From: an uncultured Candidatus Bathyarchaeia archaeon
GTDB lineage: Archaea; Thermoproteota; Bathyarchaeia; Bathyarchaeales; Bathyarchaeaceae
Length of the DNA stretch: 55,063 nucleotides
Assembly (NCBI GenBank): GCA_964346895.1
Contig: CAYFWY010000001.1
Location: forward strand, 1-55,063
Reading direction: 5' to 3'
In this document: positions 4,159 through 18,076 of the stretch, one piece after another
How positions within the stretch are numbered: the stretch's first letter is position 1
Layout: every line of letters starts with the position of its first letter
The notes under the pieces: model-generated
Database searches by the model: none
What the model saw: only the letters and a program-made list of their open reading frames with translations
What the model was told of the DNA's origin: nothing
Made by a program: the position numbers and the translations under genes

Positions 4159-4605
4159 CTAAGGAGATTCAAAAGGCACAAACTCATAAGTTGGGTTCCC
4201 TTCGGGCGTAACTTTGGCCGTAAGCTTTACCTTCATGCCTACTTTGATTTCTGAAAGTTTTAGTCCCGTCACCCAAGCAAGCACTTTCACGCCTTCTTTC
4301 AACTTTCCAATAACGACAGTATATGGTTTGTATTGTTGGAAAGTTGTCGGTCTGACAACAACGTGCGTGTAAGTTTCAACTTCTGCTTCATTGCTGAGTT
4401 CAACCCACTCGAGTTTAGATGACAGACACTCGGAGCAGTCGGCACTAGGCGGAAAGTACAGTTTTCCACACCCTTCACATTTGGTCGCGTAGATTTTTCC
4501 TTGCTCTAAACCTTTCCAAAACTTCAGAGTTTTACTTATCGGTATTTGGGGCGCGATTGTTATTTCTCTAGATTTTAATGAGGGCATAAAAGACGTCCTG
4601 GTCAC
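4159..4605 (-). CDS. DUF35 OB-fold/zinc-ribbon protein (thiolase-associated)
   Basis: 148-aa ORF with zinc ribbon CEGCGKLYFPPSADCSEC followed by an OB-fold-like C-terminus. Overlaps the upstream thiolase stop by 4 nt, suggesting translational coupling. Confidence 0.85.
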   Translation of the reverse strand: MTRTSFMPSLKSREITIAPQIPISKTLKFWKGLEQGKIYATKCEGCGKLYFPPSADCSECLSSKLEWVELSNEAEVETYTHVVVRPTTFQQYKPYTVVIGKLKEGVKVLAWVTGLKLSEIKVGMKVKLTAKVTPEGNPTYEFVPFESP

Positions 4606-5801
4606 CTCCTAAGTATAGTAACGTAACAATAATGGCCTGTTCCTCCTACGTTGTGGGCAAGAGCAATGTAGTTTTTCAAGGGTACCTGCCTTGCTTTTTC
4701 ATCAACCTCTTCCCTAAGTTGCCTAGTAAGCTCATAAATCATTGAACATCCCGTTGTGCCTATTGGATGCCCCTTCGCCTTCAGGCCGCCATCCATGTTT
4801 ATAGGTATCTTTCCGCCAATTTCAGTTTGCCCTTCCCGCAACATTTTGGCACCCTCACCTTTACCGCACAGCCCAATGTCTTCGTAAGCCATGATCTCTG
4901 CAATTGTGAAGCAGTCGTGCACTTCGGCAAAGTCAATTTGATCTGGCGTAACTCCAGCAGCCTTGTAAGCTCTTCGAGAGGCTAAAACGCTTGCTTCAAG
5001 TCCAACGAAATCTGTTCTCTTACTGAGATTTGCTGTTCCCGAAGAATAGCCTATTCCAGCCACCCATACTGGTGTCTCAATCTTTAGTTCCTTGACTTTT
5101 TCTTCTGATGCAACGATTATCGATGCTGAACCATCTGTCATTGGGCAACAATCAAAAAGTTTCAGCGGCGACGCTATAACCATTGAAGACAATACATCTT
5201 CAACCGTTATCCTCTTCTGGAGGTGGGCAATTGGATTCATCGAACCATACTTGTGGTTCTTTACAGCCACCAATGCCAAGTCCTCCTCTGTTGTTCCATA
5301 CTTATCCATGTGGGCGTTAGCATAAAATGCGTAATATGCAGGAAAGGTCAATCCGAAATTGTGGAATTCCCATAAATAGTATCCAGCTCTTCCAATCCAT
5401 TCCATAGCCGTCGGAGAGTCGATTTCCCTCATCTTTTCAACACCTAATGCTACAGCAATTTCAGCTTGGCCGCTTGCCACTGTAGAGCAGGCTGTTTGAA
5501 ACGCAGCGCTTCCACTTGCACATGCGGCTTCGCATCGAACCAAACCTGCCTTTGTTAATCCACAGTATTCGCTTACAACAACGGCTGGAAGAAGTTCTTC
5601 ATACCATGCTCCAGCTCCTACTGATCCCAAAGCCACAAACTCGATTTCTTTAGCGGTTATTCCTGCATCTACTAGGGAGGGCTTAACGGCTTCAAAAGCT
5701 AACTCCGCCACATTAACATCATTTCTGTTGCCAAATTTTGAGTTACCAACGCCAACAATCGCTACCTTTCTCATAGTGACCACGCATTTATGTTTAGACA
5801 T
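4602..5801 (-). CDS. SCP-x-type thiolase (acetyl-CoA C-acyltransferase), catalytically canonical
   Basis: 399-aa ORF. Nucleophile motif CEAACASGSAAF, HDCF motif and GHPIGTTG are all present. An alternative start at 5774 (MRKVAIVG) is possible. Confidence 0.9.
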   Translation of the reverse strand: MSKHKCVVTMRKVAIVGVGNSKFGNRNDVNVAELAFEAVKPSLVDAGITAKEIEFVALGSVGAGAWYEELLPAVVVSEYCGLTKAGLVRCEAACASGSAAFQTACSTVASGQAEIAVALGVEKMREIDSPTAMEWIGRAGYYLWEFHNFGLTFPAYYAFYANAHMDKYGTTEEDLALVAVKNHKYGSMNPIAHLQKRITVEDVLSSMVIASPLKLFDCCPMTDGSASIIVASEEKVKELKIETPVWVAGIGYSSGTANLSKRTDFVGLEASVLASRRAYKAAGVTPDQIDFAEVHDCFTIAEIMAYEDIGLCGKGEGAKMLREGQTEIGGKIPINMDGGLKAKGHPIGTTGCSMIYELTRQLREEVDEKARQVPLKNYIALAHNVGGTGHYCYVTILRR

Positions 5802-5838: not shown

Positions 5839-6630
5839 TTATTTTCCTTTGAACTCGGCTTTCCTTCTCGACATGAAGGCTTCTACGCCTTCTTTAAGGT
5901 CTTCTGTAGAGAATACTAGTCCCAACAAACCTGCCTCCAGTCGCAGTCCCGCATCTAATGGCACCTGGGTTCCGAAGTTTAACGCATACTTTGCATACTT
6001 CAGAGCTATTGGCGGCCCGTCACTGAGTTTCTTCGCCAATTCTTTAACTTCTTCTCGGAGTTTTTCGTAGTGCACCACTTTATGCACTAAACCCATTTTT
6101 AAGGCTTCTTCAGCTTTAAGCATGTTCCCTAACATTATCATCTCTTTAGCTTTAGCTAGACCCACAATTCTGACGAGTCTTTGAGTCCCGCCCCACCCAG
6201 GAATGACACCTCGTAATATCTCGGTATTTCCAAGTTCAGCGTGTTCAGCTGCCACCCTCAAGTCGCATGCCAAGGCCAGTTCCAAGCCGCCACCAAGCGC
6301 GAAACCATTTATCGCTGCAATAACCGGCTTAGACATCTCCTCAATTTTACCGAAAAGTTTCTGTCCAGACCTTGAAAATTCTTCAGCTTTCACTGGCGTC
6401 GCCCTAGGGAACATTGTTAGATCTGCACCTGCGCTGAAGGCGCGGTCACCTTCACCGGTTACTACGACACATCTAATGCTTTGGTCTTTCTCAGCGGTGT
6501 CTATAACATCTGAGAGTTCCTCCATCAAAACCTCATTGAAAGCATTTAATCGATGAGGCCTGTTTAGCACTATCCACAATACGTTTTTTTCTCTTTCTAC
6601 TTTGACGGTTTCATATGCTGTGCTCAACAA
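5839..6630 (-). CDS. Enoyl-CoA hydratase (crotonase family)
   Basis: 263-aa ORF with crotonase oxyanion-hole motifs FSAGADL and GFALGGGLELALACD. Confidence 0.9.
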   Translation of the reverse strand: MLSTAYETVKVEREKNVLWIVLNRPHRLNAFNEVLMEELSDVIDTAEKDQSIRCVVVTGEGDRAFSAGADLTMFPRATPVKAEEFSRSGQKLFGKIEEMSKPVIAAINGFALGGGLELALACDLRVAAEHAELGNTEILRGVIPGWGGTQRLVRIVGLAKAKEMIMLGNMLKAEEALKMGLVHKVVHYEKLREEVKELAKKLSDGPPIALKYAKYALNFGTQVPLDAGLRLEAGLLGLVFSTEDLKEGVEAFMSRRKAEFKGK

Positions 6631-6685: not shown

Positions 6686-7840
6686 TTAAAATTTCCTTAG
6701 GAGATATTTAAGGACGGTTAGCTTTTGGATTTCAGACGTTCCTTCGTAGATTTCAGTTATTTTTGCGTCTCTGTGATATCTTTCAACACGGTAGTCGCCT
6801 AAATAGCCGTAACCACCCAAGGTTTGTATCGCAAAGTCTGTGGCTTCCATTGCAACTCTGGCTGCGTATTGTTTCGCCATTGCCGTCGCCATAGGATCCA
6901 ATTTACCAGCGTCAATTAACCAAGCAGCCCTATAGGTCAGCCACCTTGCAGCTTCAATTTTTGTCATGGCTTCAGCCAGTCCAGCGCCTATCAGTTCGTG
7001 CTGAAGTATAGGCTGCCCGAAAGCTTCTCTTTCTTTTGCGTATTTGAAGGCAATTTCCCAGGCTCCTTGAGCCATACCTATGGCTTGGGCTGCGACGCCT
7101 ACACGGGTTATGTCGAAGAACTCCATGGAATGATAAAATCCTCTGTTCAGTTCGCCGACTAGGTTCCAATCGGTCACTCTGACATTGTCAAATTTAACTT
7201 CTCCTGTCACTGAACATCGAATTCCCATCTTGTCGTGCAATTTGGTGGTTTCAAGTCCCTGAGTATCTTTGTCGACTACAAAGAGAGTTTCCCCTCTGTA
7301 TCTGGGCCTTACCTTTGCGTCTGTTTGGGTTAAGACAATGATGAAATCAGCTAGTGTTGCGTTTGAAATGAGCGTCTTTGAACCATTTATCCACCACTCT
7401 TTTCCATATTTTGTGGCGGTGGTTTCCATGCGTGTTATGTCGCTTCCGCTTACGTTTGGTTCGGTAAATGCCGCTGCTGATATATATTCGCCCTTACATA
7501 TTGAAGGTAAATACTTTTCCTTCTGTTCCTTCGTACCATAGTCTATTATAAATTCGCTACCGAAGTTTCCACTTGAAATAGCTGCACCTAGAGACGAGTC
7601 TGCTCTGCACATTTCCTCTATAACTAAACATGTTTCAAGCAGTCCATATCCTTGCCCACCATATTCCTCGGGAAATGAAATACTAGTAAACCCAAGTTTC
7701 GCTGCGTGCTCGTACAATTCTAACGGGAACTCTTCTTTCCTATCGAGGTCTAGTGCCAGTTCTGGCCTGAATTCTTTTGCGCAAAACTCTTTAACGGCAT
7801 TTACGATTCCTTTTTGTTCTTCGGTTAATTCGAATTCCAT
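6686..7840 (-). CDS. Acyl-CoA dehydrogenase
   Basis: 384-aa ORF with ACAD-type N-terminus (LTEEQ..), FTEPNVSGSD, and C-terminal IYEGTSEIQ containing the catalytic Glu context. Confidence 0.92.
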   Translation of the reverse strand: MEFELTEEQKGIVNAVKEFCAKEFRPELALDLDRKEEFPLELYEHAAKLGFTSISFPEEYGGQGYGLLETCLVIEEMCRADSSLGAAISSGNFGSEFIIDYGTKEQKEKYLPSICKGEYISAAAFTEPNVSGSDITRMETTATKYGKEWWINGSKTLISNATLADFIIVLTQTDAKVRPRYRGETLFVVDKDTQGLETTKLHDKMGIRCSVTGEVKFDNVRVTDWNLVGELNRGFYHSMEFFDITRVGVAAQAIGMAQGAWEIAFKYAKEREAFGQPILQHELIGAGLAEAMTKIEAARWLTYRAAWLIDAGKLDPMATAMAKQYAARVAMEATDFAIQTLGGYGYLGDYRVERYHRDAKITEIYEGTSEIQKLTVLKYLLRKF

Positions 7841-9036
7841 TTATAGAACCCCTGCCCCACTTTCTTTCCTATCCAGCCCTTCGTGACATAATTCTCGAGG
7901 ACTGGACACGGTTTATAAATTTCCATTTTATATTTGGCGTATAACTCCTTTAGTTTATCTAGTAAGAAATCTATGCCTATCCGATCTGCATGTTCGCATG
8001 GACCTGAAGGCCAAAAGGTGCCCAATTTCATTCCGGTGTCAATATCTTCAGGATTTGCAGCGTCGTCGTGAATTAACCATGAGGCTTCGTTCACTGCCAC
8101 TGCCCAAGTTCTTTCAACATCATACTCATCAAGCAGATTGAAGGGGATTCTAGGTCTACCTTTTGCCCAATCGTAGAATCCAAGCCCTGTTTTTTGTCCA
8201 TATCTCTTTTCTTTTATGAGTGGATCAATTAATTCTGAGCATGGTTTGAAGCGTTCTCCATAAGCTTGGTACAAGATTTCTCCAACATCGTAGCTAATGT
8301 CTATCCCGATAAAGTCGGCTAGTTCGAACCATCCCATCGGGAATCCACCTGTATATTTTATTGAGGCGTCTATGCCTTCTTTTGTTGCTTCGCCGCGGTT
8401 ATAAGCCCAAAAGGCTTCGTTGAAAACTGCCCCTAACACTCTATTTACTATGAATCCCCGTACATCTTTTCGTACGATTACTGGTGTTTTTCCCAGTTTT
8501 CTGGCAAGTTCCGCAAGAGTGGCTACTGTTTCTTGACTTGTGTTATCGCCTTTAATTACTTCGACTAGAGTCATCAGTTGTGGCGGATTGAAGAAGTGCA
8601 TTCCTGCTACTTTGTCTGGGCGTTTGGTCGCTTTGCCCATCTCTGTTATACTTAATGCAGATGTGTTGGATGCAAGTATCGCGTTTGAAGGAGCAAAAGA
8701 ATCTAATGTGGCGAAGACTTTCTTCTTCAATTCAATGTTTTCTGGGACTACTTCAATTGCTAAGTCTATATTTTTGCCAGCTTGTTCGTAGCTAGTCGTG
8801 ACGCTTACTCTTGCAAGGGCAGCATCAGCGTCTTCGCGTCTTATTCTTTTCTTTTCTACAAACTTGTCTAGGCTCCATTTCATTTTTTCCATGCCTTTTT
8901 GGAGAAATTCGTCGCTTACATCAATCAATGTGACTTCGCATCCGGCCATTGCGAGGAGCTGAGCAATACCACTTCCCATTGCTCCTGCGCCTGCAACCCC
9001 TGCTTTTTTAATTTTTTCAATTGCCAAAATGTTCAC
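7825..9036 (-). CDS. 3-hydroxyacyl-CoA dehydrogenase (NAD-binding, extended C-terminal domain)
   Basis: 403-aa ORF with Rossmann motif GVAGAGAMGSGIA, plus SNTSALSITE and HFFNPP motifs. Overlaps the downstream ACAD gene by 16 nt. Confidence 0.9.
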   Translation of the reverse strand: MNILAIEKIKKAGVAGAGAMGSGIAQLLAMAGCEVTLIDVSDEFLQKGMEKMKWSLDKFVEKKRIRREDADAALARVSVTTSYEQAGKNIDLAIEVVPENIELKKKVFATLDSFAPSNAILASNTSALSITEMGKATKRPDKVAGMHFFNPPQLMTLVEVIKGDNTSQETVATLAELARKLGKTPVIVRKDVRGFIVNRVLGAVFNEAFWAYNRGEATKEGIDASIKYTGGFPMGWFELADFIGIDISYDVGEILYQAYGERFKPCSELIDPLIKEKRYGQKTGLGFYDWAKGRPRIPFNLLDEYDVERTWAVAVNEASWLIHDDAANPEDIDTGMKLGTFWPSGPCEHADRIGIDFLLDKLKELYAKYKMEIYKPCPVLENYVTKGWIGKKVGQGFYKWNSN

Positions 9037-9223: not shown

Positions 9224-10213
9224 TTACGCCTTATGCAGTTTTAGCTCATTAATTTTGTTTATCAATGAAGGGACAACCTTGAATAAATCTTCGATAATGC
9301 CATAGTCCGCGAAGTTAAATATCGGAGCTTTTTGATCTCTGTTTAAAGCGATGATTAGGTCTGAGCCTTTCATCCCTAGAACGTGTTGAAAGGCTCCGCT
9401 TATTCCAACCGCAAAATAGAGATTAGGCTTCACTGTTTTTCCTGAACTGCCAACTTGACGGTCGCTGGGAAGCCAGCCTTTGTCTACGATCGGGCGGGAA
9501 CAGGCCAGAACTGCGCCCAACTCATTTGCCAGTTCTTCCATCATGGGCATGCTATTTTGGTCTTTTATTCCTCGACCTATGCCCACGAGTTTTTCTGCGC
9601 CTGTAATGTCGACTCCACCTGAAGGAGGAACAACATATTTAATGAAGTGTTTTTCGACAATTTCTTCTGTTAGGGGGGATAAGATTTCGGTGATTTGCCC
9701 GTTTGCTGGTTCTGTTGGTTTTTGTCCGGTGAATGTTGCTTGGCGTACCGTTACTATGTAGGTTTCGGCTTTACGGGCCGTTGCCTTAACGTTTACTTTT
9801 CCTCCATAAATTTGGCGTGTTACGGTTAAGATGGCGCCTTCAAAGTCTAGGTCTATACAGTCCGTTGCGAGGGGTCTGTTTAAAGCTGTAGCAAGTCTCG
9901 GAGCTAGTTCGACACCGTAGGAAGTGTGTCCTATCATGACCAGCAATGGTTTGTGCTCTGTGATTAATCTTGAGAGAATTTTTCTGTAGGGTTCCGAATT
10001 GAAGTTATCCAGTTTTTCGTCTTGGACTAGCAGAACTGTTTTTGCGTATTCAGTTAAGATTTTCGCGTGTTGCTTAACATCTTTGCCCAATATGATTGAG
10101 GTCAATTCTGAGTCTGTTTTTTCAGCTATTTCTCTAGCTTTTGAGAGCATTTCGTAGGTTATATCTCGGATTCGTCCTTGCCTATGTTCGGTAAGAACGA
10201 AAATTTTAGCCAT
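9224..10213 (-). CDS. etfA: Electron transfer flavoprotein, alpha subunit
   Basis: 329-aa ORF. C-terminal FAD domain motifs RPIVDKGWLPSDRQVGSSGKTVKP and YFAVGISGAFQH. Confidence 0.9.
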   Translation of the reverse strand: MAKIFVLTEHRQGRIRDITYEMLSKAREIAEKTDSELTSIILGKDVKQHAKILTEYAKTVLLVQDEKLDNFNSEPYRKILSRLITEHKPLLVMIGHTSYGVELAPRLATALNRPLATDCIDLDFEGAILTVTRQIYGGKVNVKATARKAETYIVTVRQATFTGQKPTEPANGQITEILSPLTEEIVEKHFIKYVVPPSGGVDITGAEKLVGIGRGIKDQNSMPMMEELANELGAVLACSRPIVDKGWLPSDRQVGSSGKTVKPNLYFAVGISGAFQHVLGMKGSDLIIALNRDQKAPIFNFADYGIIEDLFKVVPSLINKINELKLHKA

Positions 10214-10214
10214 T

Positions 10215-11003
10215 CTAGATTAACCCCCTTGATTTGAGGATTTCGGTGATTTTTATTGCGATTTGGTCGGGTGTGCCTTTCAGGAATTCACATTTCTTTT
10301 CGACTGGCGGCGCGTATAACTTTTTTATGCTTGTCCATGAACCTGCTGGACCTACATCGTTTTCTGCCAAGCCTGTGTCTGCGAGATTCATGACTTTGAC
10401 TTCTTTTTGCATGGCTTTGCGTATGCCCATTATTGAAACATATCTTGGCTCGTTTATTCCTGTTTGAATGGAGAACAGTGCTGGTAGCTTGACTTCGATT
10501 TGTTCTTCTAGACCGCCTTCTAGTTCACGGTTGACTTTGGCTGTACCTGAGGCTAGTTCAATTTTTTTAACAATTGTTGCATGCGGTATGCCTAGCATTT
10601 CAGCTAGGATTGGCCCGACCATAGCATTGCCATCGTCGGCCGATTGCATTCCCGTAAGAATTAGGTCGTAGTGTAGGGTTTTGATTATACTGTGAAGGAT
10701 TTTTGCGATTGCGTAAGCATCTGAGGCCTCGAATTTTTTATCTGTTAAGCGCATGGCTTTGTCCGCTCCTCTGGCTAGACATTTTCTTAACGTGCGTTCT
10801 GAGTCTTGGGGGCCTATTGTTATAGCTGTGATTGTTCCACCTTGCTTCTCTTTTATGCGCACCGCCTCTTCTAATGCGTAGTCGTCCCACTCGTTAATAT
10901 CATAAACTAAGCCCGCTTTTTCTATGGATTTGGCAGATGAATCGATTCTCAGCTCAGCTTCGGCTGTTTCTGGAACATGCTTAACACAAAGAATCGTGTC
11001 CAC
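10215..11003 (-). CDS. etfB: Electron transfer flavoprotein, beta subunit
   Basis: 262-aa ORF with a GTG start. N-terminus ILCVKHVPE..., INEWDDYALEEA, LILTGMQSADDGN. Separated from etfA by 1 nt. Confidence 0.9.
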   Translation of the reverse strand: MDTILCVKHVPETAEAELRIDSSAKSIEKAGLVYDINEWDDYALEEAVRIKEKQGGTITAITIGPQDSERTLRKCLARGADKAMRLTDKKFEASDAYAIAKILHSIIKTLHYDLILTGMQSADDGNAMVGPILAEMLGIPHATIVKKIELASGTAKVNRELEGGLEEQIEVKLPALFSIQTGINEPRYVSIMGIRKAMQKEVKVMNLADTGLAENDVGPAGSWTSIKKLYAPPVEKKCEFLKGTPDQIAIKITEILKSRGLI

Positions 11004-11153
11004 CTAACGTTAGCCTCCATAACGCTAATCTTTTGACTAAGTAACCTATTTCATATAGTTTTTGCGCGAATTAATGCGCGCATTTCAATCCTGAACAAAT
11101 AAAAATGAAAATGTAACTACCCAAGCAGCGATGCGCTAAGAGGCTGCAAGTAA

Positions 11154-11316
11154 ATGAAATTGAAGGAGAGAACAGTAGACAACCTAGATACCGCCTTTTT
11201 CGGAGAAGTGAAATCTCACAAAGATTTCTGGTGTACGCCAAAAGGCGGAACGTGAAACGCCGGAACTGTGCGCCGTTTGCAGAGCCGCTAAAACGAAATT
11301 CGAAAACGTACCTTAG
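11154..11316 (+). pseudogene. Collapsed rubrerythrin-like relic (N-terminal helix joined to a C-terminal rubredoxin-like tail, with frameshift)
   Basis: The ATG at 11154 gives MKLKERTVDNLDTAFFGEVKSHKDFWCTPKGGT*. The +1 frame continues ..ETPELCAVCRAAKTKFENVP*. This resembles a rubrerythrin start (..NL..AF.GE..) and its CPxC..KxxFE end, with about 130 aa of the diiron core missing. Confidence 0.4.
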
Positions 11317-11329
11317 CTCAAATTGCCAG

Positions 11330-13693
11330 TCACGCTTTTAATTCTTGCTTGATCTTGTTTCTTTTTTCCTTTGGTAAAGGGCCGAACTTTTTAATCCTAT
11401 CCGTGAAAAGTGTGAACAGTTCGGCTGCTTTTTTGTAAACAGGCAAGGGCACGTAGCTGTAACGAACTCGCATGCTTTCAATTCCAAATTTAGCTAGCTT
11501 TTGCCTCATTTCAATAATTCTTTTCTTCGTAAACTTTTCATCAATCTCTTGCGAACCCTCAATCACCAAAACTCCATCAGCACCAAACGCAAAAGCGTAG
11601 AGCAAATGTTTCAAGCCCAAAATAGCAGTCGACGGAACAGACACTATCCGAATATTTTCAGGATAATTCACGCGATCCAAACCCAAAAAGTCAATGCCCG
11701 TATAACCCACATTCTTATCAACGAAAGCAACAACAATAACTTCTTCAGCATCCTTTTCAGCCAACACTCCCCTTAAAGTTGCGATTATCTGCTTCGCCAT
11801 CGAATTCCTAAAGTCAATAGCCTCTTTCGGACAGATGGGTATGCATGCGCCACAACCGATGCACTGAAAAGGATCAATTTTGGCTTTCTCCTCCTGCAGA
11901 GTTATGGCGTTTACGGGACACACCAGAACACAGTTGCCACAGCCATTGCATAAATCTGTAATCACAAATGCTTTCTCAGGACTTGTAGTAACATAGTCGC
12001 TCTTAAGAAACAACGAAGCCCTAGCCGCAGCCCCCAAAGAATCAGAAACCGTGTCGCGAACATCTTTCGGGCTCAAGGCGCAACCACTAACAAAAATTCC
12101 GGTGACAAGTGAATCGACTGGGTCAAGTTTTGGGTGCTTTTCTGTTACGAAGCCATGCTCACCAATTGGCACCTTCATTTTGTCTGCTAATTCCTTCAAC
12201 CCTGTTGGCGGAATCATTGGCGTGGCCAAAGCAACCATGTCATACTCATCTTCCCTAATCTCGCCAGACAATGTATCTTCAGTTAAAACAACAAGCTTGC
12301 CAGTATTATTCCTGTAGACTTCAGCTACTTTTCCCTTCACAAATTGTACTCCGGCTTCCTCATTCCGCCAATAGAGGTCCTCATAACCCTTACCAGCAGC
12401 CCTAATGTCAATATAATAAATTGTCACTTCAATATCGAGTATCTTCTTGAGAATCAGAGCCTGCTTCAAAGAGTACATGCAACAAATGCGGCTGCAATAA
12501 GGAATGTTGTTCTTATCTCTGGAACCGGCACAAAGCACAATCGCCATTCTCCTAACGTCACTGCCATCCGCCCTTTTAATATACCCGCCAGTCGGCCCAG
12601 TAGCTGAGGTCAACCTCTCCAAATCCATCATTGTGATAACATCTTCGTAATTGCCATACCCGTAAATCTCTAGATTCCGGGCGTCGTAAAGCTTGAATCC
12701 TGTAGCTAGAATTATAGAGCCCACATTTAGGTTAACAATGCTGCCCTTATCCTCTAAGGTTATAGCTTTAGCAGGACACAACTTCTCACACTTTCCACAC
12801 TTAGTGCAAGCGTCGAAATCTATCGTATAAGCAGAGGGAACCGCTTGAGGAAACTCTATGTAAGCTGCTTTTCTCTGCGACAGACCCTGGTTAAACTCAT
12901 CCGGAACCGTCACCGGGCAAACTTTTTCACATACGCCACAACTCCTGCATTTCTCAACGATTACACCTCTCGGTTTGAAAAAGATTTCAACATCATAATT
13001 TCCAGGTCTTCCACCAAAATCTTGAACTTCAGCGTAAGTAAGCAAATTCACGTTTGCATTTCTCCCAACCTCAGCCATCCTAGGAGTAAGTATGCATTGG
13101 GCACAGTCTAAAGTCGGAAAAACCTTCGTCAATTTTGCCATGCTGCCGCCTATGCTGGGTCTTCTCTCTACAAGGTATACCTTAAAACCCAAATAGCCAA
13201 GTTCAAGAGCCGCAGTGATTCCGGCAATGCCCCCTCCTACGATTAGAATTTCCCTGGAACCCCTTTCGCTTATCGTTTCTAATGGTTCAAGCTCCAAGCT
13301 TCGCTCATAACCACCTCTAATTAAGCTTAAAGCCTTCCTTGTGGCTTCTGCTGACTTATGCGGCCCATGAACCCACGAGGTTTGTTCTCTAATATTAACA
13401 AATTCAAGCATGTAAGGGTTCAAGCCAGCTCTTTCCAAAAGGCTCTGGAAAGTCATGAGGTGCATCCTCGGCGTGCAACTTGCAACCACAACTCTGTCCA
13501 AGCCATCCTTCTTAATGGCCTCAAGGATCAATTCCTGAGCTGGCTTCGAACACAAGTAGTTGTGATATTTGGCTACAACAACCCCTTTCCAGCTCTTAAC
13601 AGCATCAATAACCAAGTTAACGTCTATAACATCACCTATGTTTCCACCACACTCACAGACAAAAATGCCGATTCTAGGAATCTTCTTTTCCAT
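11330..13693 (-). CDS. hdrA: HdrA-like FAD/FeS flavoprotein with fused C-terminal MvhD/FlpD-like domain
   Basis: N-terminal IGIFVCECGGNIG, FAD motif ILIVGGGIAGITAALELG and four CxxCxxCxxxCP ferredoxin motifs. The C-terminal ~138 aa resemble MvhD (GADGVLVIEG). The ORF track starts at 13732. The ATG at 13693 (MEKKIPRIG) is preferred because a TATA-like ATATATATTA lies about 27 nt upstream. Confidence 0.85.
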   Translation of the reverse strand: MEKKIPRIGIFVCECGGNIGDVIDVNLVIDAVKSWKGVVVAKYHNYLCSKPAQELILEAIKKDGLDRVVVASCTPRMHLMTFQSLLERAGLNPYMLEFVNIREQTSWVHGPHKSAEATRKALSLIRGGYERSLELEPLETISERGSREILIVGGGIAGITAALELGYLGFKVYLVERRPSIGGSMAKLTKVFPTLDCAQCILTPRMAEVGRNANVNLLTYAEVQDFGGRPGNYDVEIFFKPRGVIVEKCRSCGVCEKVCPVTVPDEFNQGLSQRKAAYIEFPQAVPSAYTIDFDACTKCGKCEKLCPAKAITLEDKGSIVNLNVGSIILATGFKLYDARNLEIYGYGNYEDVITMMDLERLTSATGPTGGYIKRADGSDVRRMAIVLCAGSRDKNNIPYCSRICCMYSLKQALILKKILDIEVTIYYIDIRAAGKGYEDLYWRNEEAGVQFVKGKVAEVYRNNTGKLVVLTEDTLSGEIREDEYDMVALATPMIPPTGLKELADKMKVPIGEHGFVTEKHPKLDPVDSLVTGIFVSGCALSPKDVRDTVSDSLGAAARASLFLKSDYVTTSPEKAFVITDLCNGCGNCVLVCPVNAITLQEEKAKIDPFQCIGCGACIPICPKEAIDFRNSMAKQIIATLRGVLAEKDAEEVIVVAFVDKNVGYTGIDFLGLDRVNYPENIRIVSVPSTAILGLKHLLYAFAFGADGVLVIEGSQEIDEKFTKKRIIEMRQKLAKFGIESMRVRYSYVPLPVYKKAAELFTLFTDRIKKFGPLPKEKRNKIKQELKA

Positions 13694-13793
13694 ATGGTGC
13701 GTCTCCATTTTCCATAATATATATTGATTCATAGAAAGAAAAAAACTTATTAAAAATCTTAGCTCCTCATTTCACTTGAAAGTGATCTAGAGA
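13694..13793. promoter_or_regulatory. Divergent promoter region between the hdrA-like and CCG-protein genes
   Basis: AT-rich, with a TATA-like element for each direction (13715-13725 on the minus strand; CTTATTAAAAATC at 13746-13758 on the plus strand). Inverted repeat TCACTT-GA-AAGTGA at 13772-13785. Confidence 0.4.
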
Positions 13794-14903
13794 ATGAACG
13801 CCCAGGAGCTTGTCCAGAAACATAAACTTCTCGAGTGCATCCAGTGTGGAATGTGCACCGGATGTTGCCCGGTTGCAAAAAAGGCTAGTTTGAATGTAAG
13901 AAGATACATGCAGGAAGTTTCAGCCATAGGCAAACTAATCATACACCCGCAAAACGAGTTATGGAGTTGTACAACGTGCTCCACTTGCAGCATTCTCTGC
14001 CCAAAAGACCTAAACCCATACGAATTTTTGATTGACATACGCAGCATGGCGGTTGAAGAGGGCAAAATCGCCCCAACTATCCGAGATGCCTTAGAAAGCA
14101 TGTTCAAAAATGGCAACCCATGGTCAAGAATACGTAGCAAACGCTCTGAGTGGCTTGAAAGTTTAAACGCCAAACACATTTCACAAGGTGCAGAAATACT
14201 ATATTATGTCGGTTGCACATCAGCCTATGACCCTAGGGTTCAAAACGTAGCTAAAAGCCTCGTAAAATGCTTTAAAAAGGCGGGATTAAGCTTTGGCGTT
14301 CTAGGCGATGAAGAAAGCTGCTGCGGAAGCGAAGCTTACGGTATGGGAGAAAAAGGCTTGTTCGAGTTTCTCGTTGAAGAGAATATGAAAATTTTCAACA
14401 AATACAAAATAAAACGAATGGTGACAAGCTGTCCACATGCTTTTCAGACCTTTAAAAAAAGATACCCACAAACCAGCATCGAAGTTCAACACCACACTCA
14501 ATCACTTGCTAAACTCATCGAAAACCATGACCTAACCTTTTCAAAAGTAGTGAATAGAAAGGTAATTTATCATGATCCCTGCTTTCTGGGAAAGCAAAAT
14601 GGAATCTATGAAGAGCCACGAAAAGTTATTGAAAGTGTGCCAGGAGTTAAGTTGTTTGAATTTGACCGTTCAAGAACTAGAAGCGTTTGCTGCGAAGGCG
14701 GCGGCGGAAGAACATGGATTGACATTCCAGGCCCGCGCTTGGCTGAAAAGCGAGTCAAAGATGCTGCTGAATCAGGTGCAGATATCTTAGCTGTAAGCTG
14801 TCCTTACTGCCTAGTAACATTTGAAGATGCCATAAAAACAACTGGACTAGAGGAAAAAATCCAAACAATGGATATCGCAGAACTACTTGTTCTTGCCCTA
14901 TGA
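13794..14903 (+). CDS. HdrD/GlcF-like iron-sulfur oxidoreductase (2x[4Fe-4S] ferredoxin domain plus two CCG domains), soluble
   Basis: 369-aa ORF. CIQCGMCTGCCP and CTTCSTCSILCP, then CCG-type cysteine motifs (ESCCGSEAY, SCPHAF, HDPCFLG, VCCEGGGG, SCPYCLV). No obvious transmembrane segment. Confidence 0.85.
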   Translation: MNAQELVQKHKLLECIQCGMCTGCCPVAKKASLNVRRYMQEVSAIGKLIIHPQNELWSCTTCSTCSILCPKDLNPYEFLIDIRSMAVEEGKIAPTIRDALESMFKNGNPWSRIRSKRSEWLESLNAKHISQGAEILYYVGCTSAYDPRVQNVAKSLVKCFKKAGLSFGVLGDEESCCGSEAYGMGEKGLFEFLVEENMKIFNKYKIKRMVTSCPHAFQTFKKRYPQTSIEVQHHTQSLAKLIENHDLTFSKVVNRKVIYHDPCFLGKQNGIYEEPRKVIESVPGVKLFEFDRSRTRSVCCEGGGGRTWIDIPGPRLAEKRVKDAAESGADILAVSCPYCLVTFEDAIKTTGLEEKIQTMDIAELLVLAL

Positions 14904-15114: not shown

Positions 15115-15696
15115 ATGTTTAATGATCTAAAAATGAAAGGAATAAGGTTTCACGGTCGAGGAGGAGAAGGCGTGGTCATAGCTGCTGAGCTTGTGGCTAA
15201 CGCTGCCTTCAAGGAAGGCAAGTGGGTTCAGGCCTTCCCATATTTTGGTGGAGAACGTCGAGGTGCTCCTGTAACAGCTTTTGTGAGAATATCTGATAAG
15301 CCAATTCGGCTTAGAGGTCCACTCTACAAACCAGATTATGTCATTGTCCTCAGCCCATTTCTAAGTGAAAAAGTGAATGTGACAGAAGGAATGAAGAACC
15401 GAGGATTATTGATAATTAATAGCGCAGGCAAGCGTAGACAGAGTGAATTCGAAGGATATAGAGTAGTTATGGTTGACGCCACCAAAATAGCTGTAAAATT
15501 AGGTCTTGTTGTCTCTGGAACCGCTGTTGTTAATACCGTGATGCTGGGAGCTTTTGCCAGAGTTACCAAGATTTTCGCTCTTGAATCACTGCAAGAAGCA
15601 ATCAGGGAAAGATGGCGTAATCAACTTGGAGAAATGAATGTTAAAGCCGCTTCTCTGGGATACATGCTTCTCAGGGAGGGTGATGAGGCTGAATAG
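15115..15696 (+). CDS. 2-oxoacid:ferredoxin oxidoreductase, gamma subunit (POR/VOR type)
   Basis: 193-aa ORF with IRFHGRGGEGVVIAAEL and FPYFGGERRGAP. First gene of a gamma-delta-alpha-beta set. Confidence 0.85.
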   Translation: MFNDLKMKGIRFHGRGGEGVVIAAELVANAAFKEGKWVQAFPYFGGERRGAPVTAFVRISDKPIRLRGPLYKPDYVIVLSPFLSEKVNVTEGMKNRGLLIINSAGKRRQSEFEGYRVVMVDATKIAVKLGLVVSGTAVVNTVMLGAFARVTKIFALESLQEAIRERWRNQLGEMNVKAASLGYMLLREGDEAE

Positions 15697-16006
15697 GAAA
15701 CGCGGCCGACGATCACCTCTTCCAAGGACTCCCCTGTCAACTCCGTCTGACAGCGGTTTTGGCGATAGTGGAACATGGCGAATATATCGCCCTATGATCG
15801 ACAAAGACAAATGTACGAAATGTGCCATATGTTGGCTTTTTTGTCCTGAGAACTGCATTAAACTAGATTCAGATAATACCCCTGAGGTCAATCTAGCGCA
15901 TTGTAAGGGTTGTGGGATCTGCGCTAAGGAATGTCCCATCAAAGGGATAGTTATGAAATATGAGGGAGAGATGAAAGATGTCGCAAAAGATAATAGCGAC
16001 TGGTAA
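15683..16006 (+). CDS. 2-oxoacid:ferredoxin oxidoreductase, delta (2x[4Fe-4S] ferredoxin) subunit
   Basis: CTKCAICWLFCP and CKGCGICAKECP. The ORF track begins at 15638. The ATG at 15683 (MRLN) overlaps the gamma-subunit stop, which suggests coupling. Confidence 0.8.
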   Translation: MRLNRKRGRRSPLPRTPLSTPSDSGFGDSGTWRIYRPMIDKDKCTKCAICWLFCPENCIKLDSDNTPEVNLAHCKGCGICAKECPIKGIVMKYEGEMKDVAKDNSDW

Positions 16007-17159
16007 TTATGCTGCTGCGTACGCAGTCAAATTGGCTAAAGTCAAAGTAGTTGCTGCCTACCCTATTACGCCTCAAACCAGTGTTATTGAGAAGATTGCT
16101 GAACTCATAGATAATGGCGAAATGAGTGCTGAATACATCAAGGTAGAATCTGAGCATAGTGCCATGTCAGCATGTATCGGAGCGTCGGCTGCCGGAGTCA
16201 GAACCTTTACAGCTACATCCTCTCAAGGTTTATTGTATATGCATGAGATGCTTCACTGGGCATCAGGAAGTAGATTGCCAATAGTGATGGCGCAAGTAAA
16301 TCGGTCTATAGCTCCCCCTTGGTCTATTTGGACTGATCAAAACGATTCCATCTCTCAAAGGGATACAGGGTGGATCCAATTCTACTGTGAAAACAATCAG
16401 GATATTCTAGATTCTTTGATACAGGCATATAAAGTAGTTGAAGACAAGAAGGTTTTATTGCCTGCGATGGTATGTTATGACGGTTTTGAACTATCCCATA
16501 CAGCGATGCCACTAGAGTTGCCTGATCAAAGAGAGATTGATAATTTCCTAGGACCCTACAATTTGAAGCACGCCCTCATAGATTTTGATAGACCTTCAAC
16601 TCATGGTAACTTGGTAAGTCCAGAATTTTACATGGAGTTTCGGCTTCTAATACAGAAAGCTATGGAGAATGCTAAACATGTTATTGATAAGACTGCATCA
16701 GATTTCTCAAGACGGTTCGGTCGAGACCATGGATCTCAGATTCAATGTTACAAGTGTAGAAGTGCGGATGTGGCAATTGTATCTATGGGTGCTTTAAGTA
16801 GCGAAGCGAAGGAGGCGGTCGACAGACTAAGAAAGAAGAAAGTGCCTGTTGGCGCTATCAAGGTACGAGTCTTCAGACCTTTTCCTACAGAGGTTTTCCA
16901 AGAGATTGGAAAAAGCGTGAAAGCCTTCGTAATCATAGACCGTAATATATCCTTTGGCATTGAAGGTGTCCTCTTCACTGAGGTAAAAAGCTCTTTATAT
17001 CCATTGGACAAGAAGCCCTTGGTTCTCGGCTTTATTGCTGGTCTCGGTGGACGAGACATAAGAGTACGACACATTATCAAGGCAGCCAGAAAAGCATTAA
17101 ACGCTCTTCGAACTGGTGTAAAGTACCCCATGGAGGAATGGGTTAACGTTAAGAGGTGA
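15978..17159 (+). CDS. 2-oxoacid:ferredoxin oxidoreductase, alpha subunit
   Basis: 393-aa ORF with GNYAAAYAVKLAKVKVVAAYPITPQT and SEHSAMSACIGASAAGVRTFTATSSQGL. Confidence 0.88.
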   Translation: MSQKIIATGNYAAAYAVKLAKVKVVAAYPITPQTSVIEKIAELIDNGEMSAEYIKVESEHSAMSACIGASAAGVRTFTATSSQGLLYMHEMLHWASGSRLPIVMAQVNRSIAPPWSIWTDQNDSISQRDTGWIQFYCENNQDILDSLIQAYKVVEDKKVLLPAMVCYDGFELSHTAMPLELPDQREIDNFLGPYNLKHALIDFDRPSTHGNLVSPEFYMEFRLLIQKAMENAKHVIDKTASDFSRRFGRDHGSQIQCYKCRSADVAIVSMGALSSEAKEAVDRLRKKKVPVGAIKVRVFRPFPTEVFQEIGKSVKAFVIIDRNISFGIEGVLFTEVKSSLYPLDKKPLVLGFIAGLGGRDIRVRHIIKAARKALNALRTGVKYPMEEWVNVKR

Positions 17160-18076
17160 CAAAAATGAGTTGGATAAAACAATTACCTAAAGAAGAATGC
17201 ATTCTTCCTGGTATATCTTCCTGTGTGGGCTGTGGTGCTGCCTTGAGTCTGAGATTCGTTTTGAGAATTTTAGGAAGACGAACAATTCTAATCATTCCTG
17301 CTTGTTGCTCCTCGATTATCCAAGGTTCTTATCCTAATACCGCCTTCAAGATTCCTGTTCTGAATGTAGCCTTCGCTTCGAGTGCTGCTATTGCGTCAGG
17401 AGTAGCAGCGGCCCTTAGAACTCGAGATATCGAAGGAGCCAATGTGATGGTCTGGGCTGGAGATGGAGGTACTGCTGACATAGGAATCCAAGCAATCTCG
17501 GGCGCAGCTCAACGTCAGGAAGACATTCTCTACGTCTGTTACGATAATGAAGGTTACATGAATACTGGAATCCAAGAAAGCGGTGCAACACCTTTCGGTG
17601 CATGGACCTCCAACTCACCAAGAGGTAAGCGGCTATTCAAGAAGAACATGCCTTTCATAATGATGGGACATAGAATACCGTATATAGCCACCGCAAATAT
17701 TTCGTATCCTCAAGACTTAATCCTGAAGATTAAAAAAGCTTTGAACCATTCTGGATTCAAGTATATCCATCTTTATACCGCTTGTCCTCCAGGCTGGCGA
17801 ATACCCGCAGATGAAACAATAAGTATAGGAAAACTTGCGGTCAAGACTGGAGTTTGGGCTCTCTTCGAGATAGAAAATGGAAAATTTCGTCTAACAGGTC
17901 CAAGCGTCAGAATTCTCAACAAAAACAGAAGGGAACCCTTGGAAGAATATTTGGGAATCCAAGGGCGTTACAAAACAATAACAGATGAAGACATTGAAAT
18001 CTTAAAAGAAAGAATAGACAAAACATGGAAGATATATTCTGAACTACAGAAATTGGAAGAGGCCGTTCCTCTTTAG
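17156..18076 (+). CDS. 2-oxoacid:ferredoxin oxidoreductase, beta (TPP-binding) subunit
   Basis: 306-aa ORF with CVGCGAALSLR and TPP motif GDGGTADIGIQAISGA...YDNEGYMNTG. GTG start overlaps the alpha-subunit stop. Confidence 0.88.
   Translation: MTKMSWIKQLPKEECILPGISSCVGCGAALSLRFVLRILGRRTILIIPACCSSIIQGSYPNTAFKIPVLNVAFASSAAIASGVAAALRTRDIEGANVMVWAGDGGTADIGIQAISGAAQRQEDILYVCYDNEGYMNTGIQESGATPFGAWTSNSPRGKRLFKKNMPFIMMGHRIPYIATANISYPQDLILKIKKALNHSGFKYIHLYTACPPGWRIPADETISIGKLAVKTGVWALFEIENGKFRLTGPSVRILNKNRREPLEEYLGIQGRYKTITDEDIEILKERIDKTWKIYSELQKLEEAVPL

Follow-up and report, generated by a model that had tools for sequence, protein, structure and literature searches.

We analyzed a 55,063-nt stretch of DNA (hereafter the window) from an uncultured Candidatus Bathyarchaeia archaeon. 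The window is the entire contig C1 (CAYFWY010000001.1) of a 209-contig, 1.92-Mb, 89%-complete genome (GCA_964346895.1). At positions 9224–14903, genes for an electron-transfer flavoprotein (ETF or Etf; etfB-etfA, together etfBA) lie beside a gene for an HdrA–MvhD fusion and, divergent from it, a gene for an iron–sulfur protein with two CCG domains, here called the CCG protein. A first-pass annotation of the letters alone had put etfB-etfA directly upstream of genes for 3-hydroxyacyl-CoA dehydrogenase (HADH), acyl-CoA dehydrogenase (ACAD), crotonase and thiolase, and had described hdrA and the CCG gene as diverging from a spacer of at most 100 bp. Gene calls from an open reading frame (ORF) listing with Pfam and NCBIfam scans agree with those positions. 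The divergent spacer measures 61 bp from the longest hdrA ORF and 100 bp from the conserved start codon at 13693. The genes and features concerned are:

4602–5801, minus strand: archaeal thiolase (Pfam Thiolase_N/C)
5839–6630, minus strand: crotonase, short-chain enoyl-CoA hydratase (Pfam ECH_1; NCBIfam NF004475, 293 bits)
6686–7840, minus strand: ACAD, Bcd/AcrC-like, the presumed ETF partner (Pfam Acyl-CoA_dh N/M/C; NCBIfam AcrC, 388 bits)
7825–9036, minus strand: HADH, 3-hydroxyacyl-(butyryl-)CoA dehydrogenase (Pfam 3HCDH_N and 3HCDH)
9224–10213, minus strand: etfA, large (alpha) subunit, 329 aa (Pfam ETF and ETF_alpha)
10215–11003, minus strand: etfB, small (beta) subunit, 262 aa; GTG start with GGAGG before it (Pfam ETF)
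11004–11329, no strand: hdrA-etfB spacer, 326 bp (from the sequence)
11330–13732, minus strand: hdrA-mvhD fusion (HdrA2-like), 800 aa (NCBIfam HdrA2, 836 bits)
11381–11734, minus strand: FlpD/MvhD-like domain of HdrA, free of cysteine (zero Cys beyond residue 634)
13694–13793, no strand: divergent, back-to-back hdrA/CCG promoter region (from the sequence)
13794–14903, plus strand: soluble HdrD-type CCG protein, 369 aa, with 2x[4Fe-4S] and two CCG domains (Pfam)

To place this arrangement among relatives, one genome per species was scanned for relatives of the CCG protein, which gave 79 loci; 77 carry the label Bathyarchaeia or Bathyarchaeota. Loci were annotated with a tblastn panel over 10-kb flanks. 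In 59 of the 61 species-level loci with enough upstream sequence, hdrA is the divergent neighbor of the CCG gene, at a gap of 48–274 bp (median 81). Of 55 loci, 30 have the etfB-etfA pair within 10 kb, and 26 of these 30 have an ACAD gene directly after etfA; in the remaining 25 of the 55, etfBA is more than 10 kb off or on another contig. The order varies. In 14 loci etfB comes at most 200 bp after hdrA, often only 23–35 bp, as part of an hdrA-etfB-etfA(-ACAD) operon, and in four loci etfBA sits on the opposite side of the CCG gene. Seven deeper-branching Bathyarchaeia genomes, a group that includes the sister genus of the window genome, have CCG-etfB-etfA(-ACAD) on one strand and hdrA elsewhere. 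Their CCG proteins are 52–58% identical to that of the window.

A phylum-wide scan for orthologues beyond Bathyarchaeia found them in Candidatus Nezhaarchaeales (8 genomes). There hdrA adjoins the CCG gene in 8/8 genomes and etfBA is adjacent too in 6/8, in three gene orders, one of which is a co-directional etfB-etfA-hdrA-CCG. Counting both classes, Bathyarchaeia and Nezhaarchaeales, at least five different gene orders retain the linkage. Each pairwise link (hdrA-CCG, hdrA-etfB and CCG-etfB) is an operon somewhere, and these operons, together with the three Nezhaarchaeales orders, show that the linkage outlasts rearrangement across both classes. The first-pass annotation had looked to conservation of the etfAB-hdrA-CCG neighborhood as a check on its proposal, and the neighborhood is conserved.

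Two of the loci are unusual. The single-contig Bathyarchaeia genome G123 has a split hdrA on its contig C1 (L103 and L104; 233786–234565 and 160167–161873): the part for the N-terminal 260 residues (71% identity) is still divergently beside the CCG gene, and the part for the C-terminal 565 residues (58% identity) lies 73 kb from it, immediately upstream of etfBA. The split could reflect a misassembly or an inversion that cut through the gene. The other (L051, DATKLC010000084.1) is labelled Candidatus Krumholzibacteriaceae bacterium and carries a full ACAD-etfAB-hdrA<>CCG-tfrAB locus (<> marks divergence), whose proteins are 68–75% identical to those of Bathyarchaeia; mis-binning of an archaeal contig is the likeliest explanation.

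We also profiled 201 Bathyarchaeia genomes, taking at least 52% identity to define an orthologous EtfB and at least 59% to define a close HdrA orthologue. Orthologous EtfB is encoded in 38 genomes, and the CCG orthologue in all 38 of these (in two as contig-end fragments). Only 4 of the 201 have a CCG orthologue without this Etf type; of these, two are incomplete metagenome-assembled genomes and one carries an adjacent, divergent Etf. A different Etf type (30–41% identity), found in many other genomes, does not track the CCG protein. The 2 x 2 table of Etf and CCG gives a Fisher p of ~7e-37, a value that overstates independence. Presence and absence of the two switch together within families f1, f2, f18, f21 and f25, so joint gain or loss has happened repeatedly, in at least five families. 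A close HdrA orthologue is found in 22 of the 38 Etf–CCG genomes, plus the one genome with the split hdrA. The invariable core is therefore the Etf–CCG pair, which HdrA regularly joins as a third member in Nezhaarchaeales and in the lineage of the window.

The CCG protein is soluble, with no hydrophobic segment (maximum Kyte–Doolittle score 1.23), in agreement with the first-pass annotation, which had noted the lack of a membrane subunit. It contains two cubane [4Fe-4S] motifs (C15/18/21/25 and C59/62/65/69). The first CCG domain has four Cys (C141, C176, C177 and C213), position 216 being G/A/S, and the second has five (C263, C299, C300, C336 and C339) plus H215. We mapped residue conservation on 121 CCG family sequences. 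The cubane motifs are essentially invariant, two positions being without a residue in one truncated sequence. All five Cys of the second domain, H215 and W308 are invariant; position 338 is F or Y; and at position 216, where HdrB has its fifth ligand, there is Gly, Ala or Ser but never Cys. In the Nezhaarchaeales proteins the alternative Cys is kept (SPHC), hence four Cys again.

This ligand pattern differs from that of a catalytic HdrB or HdrD, in which each CCG motif has five Cys (C...CCG...CxxC) and the two motifs hold non-cubane [4Fe-4S] clusters open to substrate. The first domain here has four, with CPH[G/A/S], and McrA, which would mark the CoM-S-S-CoB system (Mcr), was not found in the 89%-complete genome. 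By comparison, the HdrB paralogues encoded in this genome carry CxGC and an additional insertion of ~25 aa, and lack the His. Among solved structures, the best match to the CCG protein is EtfD of Mycobacterium smegmatis (9OJN; 192 bits over residues 52–367), followed at a distance by HdrC (59 bits) and HdrB (25 bits). EtfD is a membrane enzyme that passes beta-oxidation electrons from ETF to menaquinone; its clusters are two cubanes, a non-cubane cluster held by five Cys and His583 and read as non-catalytic, and a four-Cys site with a linear [3Fe-4S] cluster (PMC13083937). Another such protein is BamD of Geobacter metallireducens Bam[(BC)2DEFGHI]2. BamD has a five-Cys + His site and a modified distal four-Cys site, and the heterodisulfide pocket is occupied by its His230, Trp325 and Tyr356. 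Cryo-electron tomography and assays place canonical ETF on BamD, as the acceptor on the high-potential side of BamE, the HdrA-like bifurcating subunit (bioRxiv 10.64898/2026.04.10.717634). Everything that marks the soluble part of EtfD and of ETF:menaquinone oxidoreductase (EMO), namely 2x[4Fe-4S] plus 2xCCG with a 4-Cys and a 5-Cys+His site, is found in the window protein, and the N-terminal haem-b domain and quinone site are absent from its 369 aa.

Identity with TfrB was considered and rejected: the C-terminal half alone aligns (NF004898 positions 125–486, 177 bits versus a cut-off of 385), the SdhB-like [2Fe-2S] domain at the N-terminus of TfrB (Fer2_3) is lacking, and the genome contains no tfrA. 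TfrB, part of a thiol-using enzyme of methanogens, has SPHC where the CCG protein has CPH[G/A/S]. Judged by its ligands, then, the CCG protein looks like an ETF-docking iron–sulfur electron wire of the EtfD/BamD type, in soluble form, and is apparently not a heterodisulfide reductase in the methanogen sense. The first-pass annotation had called it HdrD/GlcF-like, one of a class of proteins whose FeS clusters reduce disulfides or quinones. The HdrD-type architecture stands; the ligands fit a wire instead.

Etf type was judged by the residue at Gly123 of the motif DGDTAQVG, which is invariant in bifurcating Etfs and where a bulkier side chain would collide with the second FAD (PMC12630350). In the window EtfB the motif reads D-D-G-N-A-M-V-G; like human ETF beta, it has Asp in place of Gly123. 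Of 36 EtfB sequences compared (window plus 35 orthologues), at least 90% keep the DDG motif. The best PDB match of EtfB is the beta subunit of the AMP-containing W3A1 (Methylophilus) ETF, at 194 bits versus 117–139 for five bifurcating EtfB (CarD, Afe, Cdi, LctB and T. maritima). Motifs NEWDD and LRKCLA(K/R)GAD are common to EtfB and W3A1. Matches of EtfA do not discriminate (bifurcating ETFs 184–207 bits, W3A1 176, human and Paracoccus canonical ETFs ~141–143), and EtfA has no N-terminal ferredoxin domain. The alpha/beta architecture with ETF and ETF_alpha domains fits a canonical ETF, AMP in the beta subunit being predicted solely from the Gly123 criterion. The N-terminal CVKHVPET of EtfB resembles the bifurcating type and leaves a small doubt. 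With that reservation, we conclude that this Etf is probably canonical (AMP-type) and non-bifurcating. The two-FAD type, raised as a question by the first-pass annotation, is not indicated. If the Etf is canonical, any bifurcation must sit on HdrA.

HdrA has an FAD/TrxR-type domain, three ferredoxin-type regions and a C-terminal FlpD/MvhD domain. Its NCBIfam scores of 836, 712 and 650 bits reach none of the cut-offs (1100 for HdrA2, 1300 and 1400 for HdrA), marking it by score as a diverged subfamily rather than an equivalog. It aligns with the solved HdrA 8RVU at 625 bits over residues 17–659, with all cluster motifs and the flavin-adjacent CxxC in register, and Pfam as well as this alignment show FAD-binding motifs retained. 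Across 65 aligned sequences (window plus 64 orthologues) 27 core Cys are kept, one position being Ser in two. The protein thus has what defines an HdrA: a TrxR-like FAD domain with CxxC, an N-terminal cluster, inserted and C-terminal ferredoxin domains, and six [4Fe-4S] clusters. The HdrA2 subclass is further defined by an MvhD domain with a [2Fe-2S] cluster; here the fusion is present and the Cys are absent. Of the eight FlpD matches in the genome, the MvhD domain of the window protein scores lowest (76 bits, versus 87–191 for the others).

Both the acyl-CoA/enoyl-CoA couple and ETF have potentials near 0 mV. Electrons from ACAD are hence too positive for formation of H2, formate or NAD(P)H or for CO2 reduction. 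Anaerobes are known to solve this problem with a membrane EMO plus reverse electron transport, or with a bifurcating two-FAD Etf. At a probability of roughly 0.62, we propose that EtfAB, the soluble CCG protein and the HdrA–MvhD fusion form one functional module that connects the acyl-CoA/enoyl-CoA couple with ferredoxin in the cytoplasm, without quinone or membrane, ETF acting as the shuttle and HdrA most likely bifurcating or confurcating. A cytoplasmic Etf:HdrA/HdrD module tied to ACAD electrons had been suggested in the first-pass annotation, and is supported by the neighborhood (59/61) and the co-occurrence (38/38). That annotation also suggested that the module could dispose of ACAD electrons. 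The pathway is reversible, so the choice between disposal and enoyl-CoA reduction is not given by sequence.

From the observed gene content, cluster-ligand patterns, and neighborhood and phyletic coupling, we infer a physical complex with an electron path, a bifurcation step, a third partner and alternative directions, as follows. Electrons would move between ACAD and the canonical one-FAD ETF, between ETF and the distal non-cubane clusters of the CCG protein, and from these through its two cubanes; onward, the path would run through the FAD of HdrA and its inserted ferredoxin domain to ferredoxin. HdrA would stand where the haem-b membrane domain stands in EtfD. Because ETF is near 0 mV, it fits only the high-potential arm of the HdrA flavin, as in the benzoyl-CoA reductase of class II (BCRII) to which BamD belongs. 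With ferredoxin on the low-potential arm, true bifurcation or confurcation needs a mid-potential two-electron partner. The HdrA flavin would most likely couple such a partner to ferredoxin (low) and to ETF/enoyl-CoA (high). That partner could be NAD(P)H or, as in HdrA2B2C2, F420H2; an F420 ligase (CofE) is encoded in the genome, and given this gene the organism probably makes F420. Run forwards, the module would be an enoyl-CoA reductase yielding reduced ferredoxin, similar to Bcd-EtfAB with the bifurcating flavin shifted from Etf to HdrA. Run backwards, it would make acyl-CoA oxidation possible by spending reduced ferredoxin.

A wider form of this proposal is that Bathyarchaeia and Nezhaarchaeales oxidize acyl-CoA without membrane or quinone, the HdrA flavin merging the ~0 mV electrons of ETF with ferredoxin electrons into F420H2 or NAD(P)H, or doing the reverse, with donor entry that dispenses with a redox-active MvhD. 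We regard this form as tentative, the odds being somewhat against it. If true, it would define a new class of HdrA-based bifurcating enzyme, akin to Bcd-EtfAB in function, in which the bifurcation site has moved from Etf to HdrA.

Several observations weigh against a module of EtfAB, CCG protein and HdrA, or against parts of it. First, HdrA is not obligatory for the CCG–Etf pair: about 15 of the 38 Etf–CCG genomes have an HdrA–MvhD that is only 45–51% identical or unlinked, or none close, and two genomes have etfBA<>CCG without hdrA nearby. Second, the MvhD domain has 0 Cys in 61 of the 65 aligned HdrAs and one stray Cys in the other 4. Lacking Cys, it cannot bind a [2Fe-2S] cluster, and so the canonical entry route for a mid-potential donor is missing. 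Third, similar HdrAs may also serve other partners. A Cys-less MvhD is likewise found in the 45–65% identical HdrAs of genomes with a CCG-etfBA operon, so the feature is not exclusive to the adjacent hdrA-CCG arrangement. Its use as a specific marker of an Etf-coupled system is weakened, as every inspected HdrA of 45–51% identity is also Cys-less; HdrAs of that identity range occur also in genomes without a CCG orthologue, where their Cys content was not inspected. Fourth, the 326-bp spacer, with a possible promoter of its own, parts hdrA from etfB in the window. Finally, as to the CCG protein itself, the C-terminal half of TfrB is its nearest paralogue, at 40% identity, and the likeness of the CCG protein to BamD comes from ligand counts and residue spacing, not from sequence alignment. 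A Foldseek search did rank 9OJN first (E 3e-18), then LutA and HdrB, with an AlphaFold2 model that is only partly reliable (pLDDT 69; ferredoxin half <50) and was used for fold search alone.

Some of these points lend themselves to a simpler, two-partner scheme, the main rival to a bifurcating module, in which reduced ferredoxin (e.g. from the adjacent 2-oxoacid:ferredoxin oxidoreductase, OFOR) feeds HdrA, the CCG protein, ETF and finally ACAD, enoyl-CoA being a plain electron sink and no third substrate taking part. An MvhD domain free of ligands leaves such a ferredoxin:ETF oxidoreductase without the usual third input, just as it would expect, and the retention of CCG plus Etf without a close HdrA in some genomes fits as well. 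The hdrA-etfB gaps of relatives contain no conserved third-partner gene, their inserts being unrelated housekeeping genes; a 494-aa FAD protein found there was considered as third partner and set aside, as it is not conserved. Moreover, a short-circuit from reduced ferredoxin to ETF has been measured in BCRII (bioRxiv 10.64898/2026.04.10.717634). Yet a wire has no need of the full HdrA architecture, whose FAD motifs, CxxC and six clusters are strictly conserved, and a loss of ~450 mV would be unusual in energy-limited sediment archaea. Nor does the lack of a dedicated subunit preclude a third substrate, for HdrA2 of Methanosarcina acetivorans takes F420H2 without one (PMC5296606), and CofE is present in this genome. 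We consider the two-partner scheme unlikely.

It is quite unlikely that HdrA and the CCG protein make up a true disulfide reductase, acting on a low-molecular-weight or protein disulfide, with ETF, TfrAB or thioredoxin reductase as alternative electron partners. The idea draws on the CC pair of the first CCG domain (C176–C177), which is Hdr-like where EtfD has C-T, on the kinship with TfrB, and on gene order in relatives, where tfrAB follows the CCG gene in ~10 loci and a gene for thioredoxin reductase is frequently found after the CCG gene or after this HdrA type. Neither CCG domain, however, has a complete HdrB ligand set (CPH[G/A/S] replaces CxxC), and the invariant His215 corresponds to the His of EtfD and BamD, which saturates the cluster and is read as non-catalytic. 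Besides the missing McrA, the phyletic coupling argues for Etf (38/38) as partner, rather than TfrAB or TrxB, which are unlinked or absent in this genome.

A third alternative concerns the adjacent OFOR, which starts 211 bp after the CCG gene on the same strand (porG-D-A-B). Its features are:

15115–18076, plus strand: OFOR, four subunits (Pfam, NCBIfam)
15115–15696, plus strand: OFOR gamma subunit
within 15638–16006, plus strand: OFOR delta subunit
15978–17159, plus strand: OFOR alpha subunit
17156–18076, plus strand: OFOR beta subunit (above the VorB cut-off, 423 > 405)

The module could in this organism be hard-wired to the enzyme, which would take the place of free ferredoxin on the low-potential arm of HdrA. 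This is very unlikely: no orthologous OFOR turned up within 10 kb in any of the 79 related loci, so that the adjacency is not conserved and OFOR was rejected as a conserved partner in this lineage. OFOR serves locally as source or sink of ferredoxin, and its placement beside the module is specific to this genome. That hdrA/CCG and the etfBA/beta-oxidation genes merely share a redox gene island, with no functional link, is scarcely credible despite the distance of etfBA in 25 of 55 loci and the separate signals of the 326-bp spacer, given co-occurrence in 38/38 genomes with repeated joint loss, linkage through at least five gene orders in two classes, and homology of the CCG protein to the two known ETF-interacting CCG proteins.

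We return to the module of EtfAB, CCG protein and HdrA, and to its intergenic regions. The hdrA start conserved in relatives is the ATG at 13693 (MEKKIPRIG); the longest ORF starts at 13732. An AT-rich, TATA-like element ~20–30 nt upstream of the ATG suggests that the hdrA transcript is leaderless or has a short leader, and that the divergent promoter region spans 100 bp. Within 13694–13793 there is a conserved CTTATTAAAAATCTTA (TATA-like) element, visibly kept in most of the 40 upstream regions inspected, of 68 compared, and a Shine–Dalgarno-like AAGTGAT precedes the ATG of the CCG gene. A 6+6 inverted repeat at 13772–13785 was rejected as an operator: it occurs in only 1 of 68 upstream regions, and its right arm is the conserved AAGTGAT. 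Between hdrA and etfB, a TATA-like element is found ~50 nt upstream of etfB. The gap between these genes in relatives ranges from 23 bp to 5.8 kb and is 13 bp in L002–L004.

The hdrA-etfB spacer of the window also contains a ATGCGCGCAT palindrome at 11074–11083. At ~11248–11310 on the plus strand it carries a relic of the rubredoxin-like C-terminal end of a rubrerythrin, ERETPELCAVCRAAKTKFENV, identical at 14 of 21 residues (tblastn, E 3e-6) to an intact 176-aa rubrerythrin in the same spacer of locus L026. An intact copy (73% identity) is located on contig C48 of this genome.

The beta-oxidation cluster extends beyond the genes listed above:

1563–3272, minus strand: acyl-CoA synthetase/ligase, AMP-binding (Pfam AMP-binding and AMP-binding_C)
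4159–4605, minus strand: DUF35/OB-fold partner of thiolase (Pfam OB_ChsH2_C and zf-ChsH2)

No further CCG/HdrB gene, [NiFe] hydrogenase or FlpD domain was found in the window. The first-pass annotation had reported neither hdrB/hdrC nor an Mvh/Frh hydrogenase, which holds for the window but not for the genome: three HdrB-like genes, at least five more hdrA paralogues and [NiFe] hydrogenases are found on contigs C16, C55, C99 and C64. At the start of C55 lies a C-terminal fragment of a [NiFe]-hydrogenase large subunit, and after it come a second hdrA-mvhD fusion and hdrB (C55:165–4412). The group looks like a canonical Mvh–Hdr set, in an organism without McrA.

Relatives show other redox genes around the module. 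In 20 of 32 loci with full 10-kb flanks (L006, L010, L021, L027, L031, L046 and others), the CCG gene is followed by a block TrxB-(FlpD-polyferredoxin)-NfnA-NfnB. Its products are a thioredoxin reductase that scores above the cut-off of TIGR01292, an NfnA/SudB-like protein, an NfnB/GltA-like protein and, except in some loci, a polyferredoxin of 402 aa that carries two FlpD domains. As part of the module the block was discounted: in the window's genome it is on another contig (C23:11948–15256) beside HycI/HypF, without the FlpD protein. In two genomes (L115 and L116) trxB directly follows the gene for an HdrA with a Cys-less MvhD. The block may be the NADPH side of the system, or mere synteny. 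Genes tfrA-tfrB, for a thiol-type fumarate reductase, follow the CCG gene in L002–L004, L044, L051, L052, L057, L062–L065 and L067; in fumarate the same HdrA may have an alternative partner of high potential.

Bathyarchaeia are usually described as lacking respiration. In other families of the class, a gene for a membrane EtfD/EMO-type protein is directly upstream of a second-type etfBA (L129, G111:C12; L131, G200:C4), and in L129 a cytochrome b gene is beside it. These proteins have 671–783 aa, with a NarI-like haem-b domain, 2x[4Fe-4S], 2xCCG and a CPHC motif, which implies a quinone-type or similar membrane route in these families. Searches of the window's genome found no ETF:quinone oxidoreductase and no membrane-anchored CCG protein. 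Set against the membrane type of the other families, the soluble protein thus looks like an alternative solution within the class.

A literature search found no published description of this etfAB-hdrA-CCG cluster. For Bathyarchaeia, etfAB, hdrABC and hdrD have been listed separately (PMC8407382), and a survey of HdrA diversity makes no mention of Etf (PMC12054007). In anoxic marine sediments Bathyarchaeia are reported to be abundant, often highly so (PMC8407382); what is said of their energy metabolism draws almost wholly on gene lists. A conserved unit of four to five proteins gives a testable hypothesis for how they ferment or oxidize fatty and amino acids. The module would be a third and fully soluble solution to the problem of ACAD electrons, and would widen the list of partners for HdrA-type bifurcation. 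To our knowledge, the sole experimental precedent for ETF on an HdrA arm is a 2026 preprint on benzoyl-CoA reductase.

Comparison with known systems shows which parts of the proposed module have counterparts. With mycobacterial EtfD, the CCG protein shares the domain order (2 cubane + 2 CCG), the CPH motif with its His ligand (H215 = His583), and the genetic coupling to etfBA and beta-oxidation. EtfD, EMO and Desulfobacterium HdrF3-etfBA (PMC2702500) differ in having an N-terminal, menaquinone-reducing haem-b membrane domain, whereas the window protein is soluble and paired with HdrA. Within the first CCG domain, the window protein has a CC pair and lacks the last Cys, whereas EtfD has C-T and CPHC and holds a linear [3Fe-4S] cluster.

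The likeness to BamD is that of a soluble HdrBC fusion with a 5-Cys + His and a 4-Cys site, an HdrA-type neighbor and coupling to Etf; on the same footing of ligand counts and spacing, H215, W308 and F/Y338 are 93 and 30 residues apart, compared with 95 and 31. Unlike the Bam complex, the window lacks the tungsten protein BamBC, the confurcating input BamGHI and a selenocysteine-containing MvhD-like adaptor. Its HdrA is single rather than a fused double, with a cluster-less MvhD; its ETF gene is clustered with ACAD; and the host is an archaeon, in which neither EMO nor menaquinone takes electrons onward.

Clostridial and acetogenic Bcd-EtfAB and CarCDE resemble the locus in gene set (thiolase, crotonase, 3-hydroxybutyryl-CoA dehydrogenase, ACAD and etfBA) and, as proposed, in coupling enoyl-CoA reduction to ferredoxin reduction. 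They bifurcate at the second FAD of EtfB with NADH as donor, unlike the window EtfB, which has Asp at Gly123 and is of the predicted AMP type.

Among heterodisulfide reductases, HdrA2B2C2 of M. acetivorans is hydrogenase-free and works with F420H2 and ferredoxin, its HdrA2 having a [2Fe-2S] motif (PMC5296606). The HdrA–MvhD fusion is common to both systems, and HdrA2 is the best NCBIfam model of the window protein. HdrA2B2C2, however, has a [2Fe-2S] MvhD, separate HdrB2C2 and CoM-S-S-CoB, where the window has a Cys-less MvhD, a fused HdrD-type partner with altered ligands, and no McrA. MvhAGD-HdrABC of hydrogenotrophic methanogens (5ODC, 8RVU) shares the HdrA core, at visibly high identity over ~640 residues and with all cluster ligands, and a wiring from flavin to an HdrC-like cubane pair to CCG clusters; hydrogenase, redox-active MvhD and catalytic HdrB are missing from the window's module. 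The HdrA-to-ETF arm itself is known. What would be new here is such an arm ending in ETF via an EtfD/BamD-like wire that stands alone, in an archaeon, coupled to ACAD and with a cluster-less MvhD.

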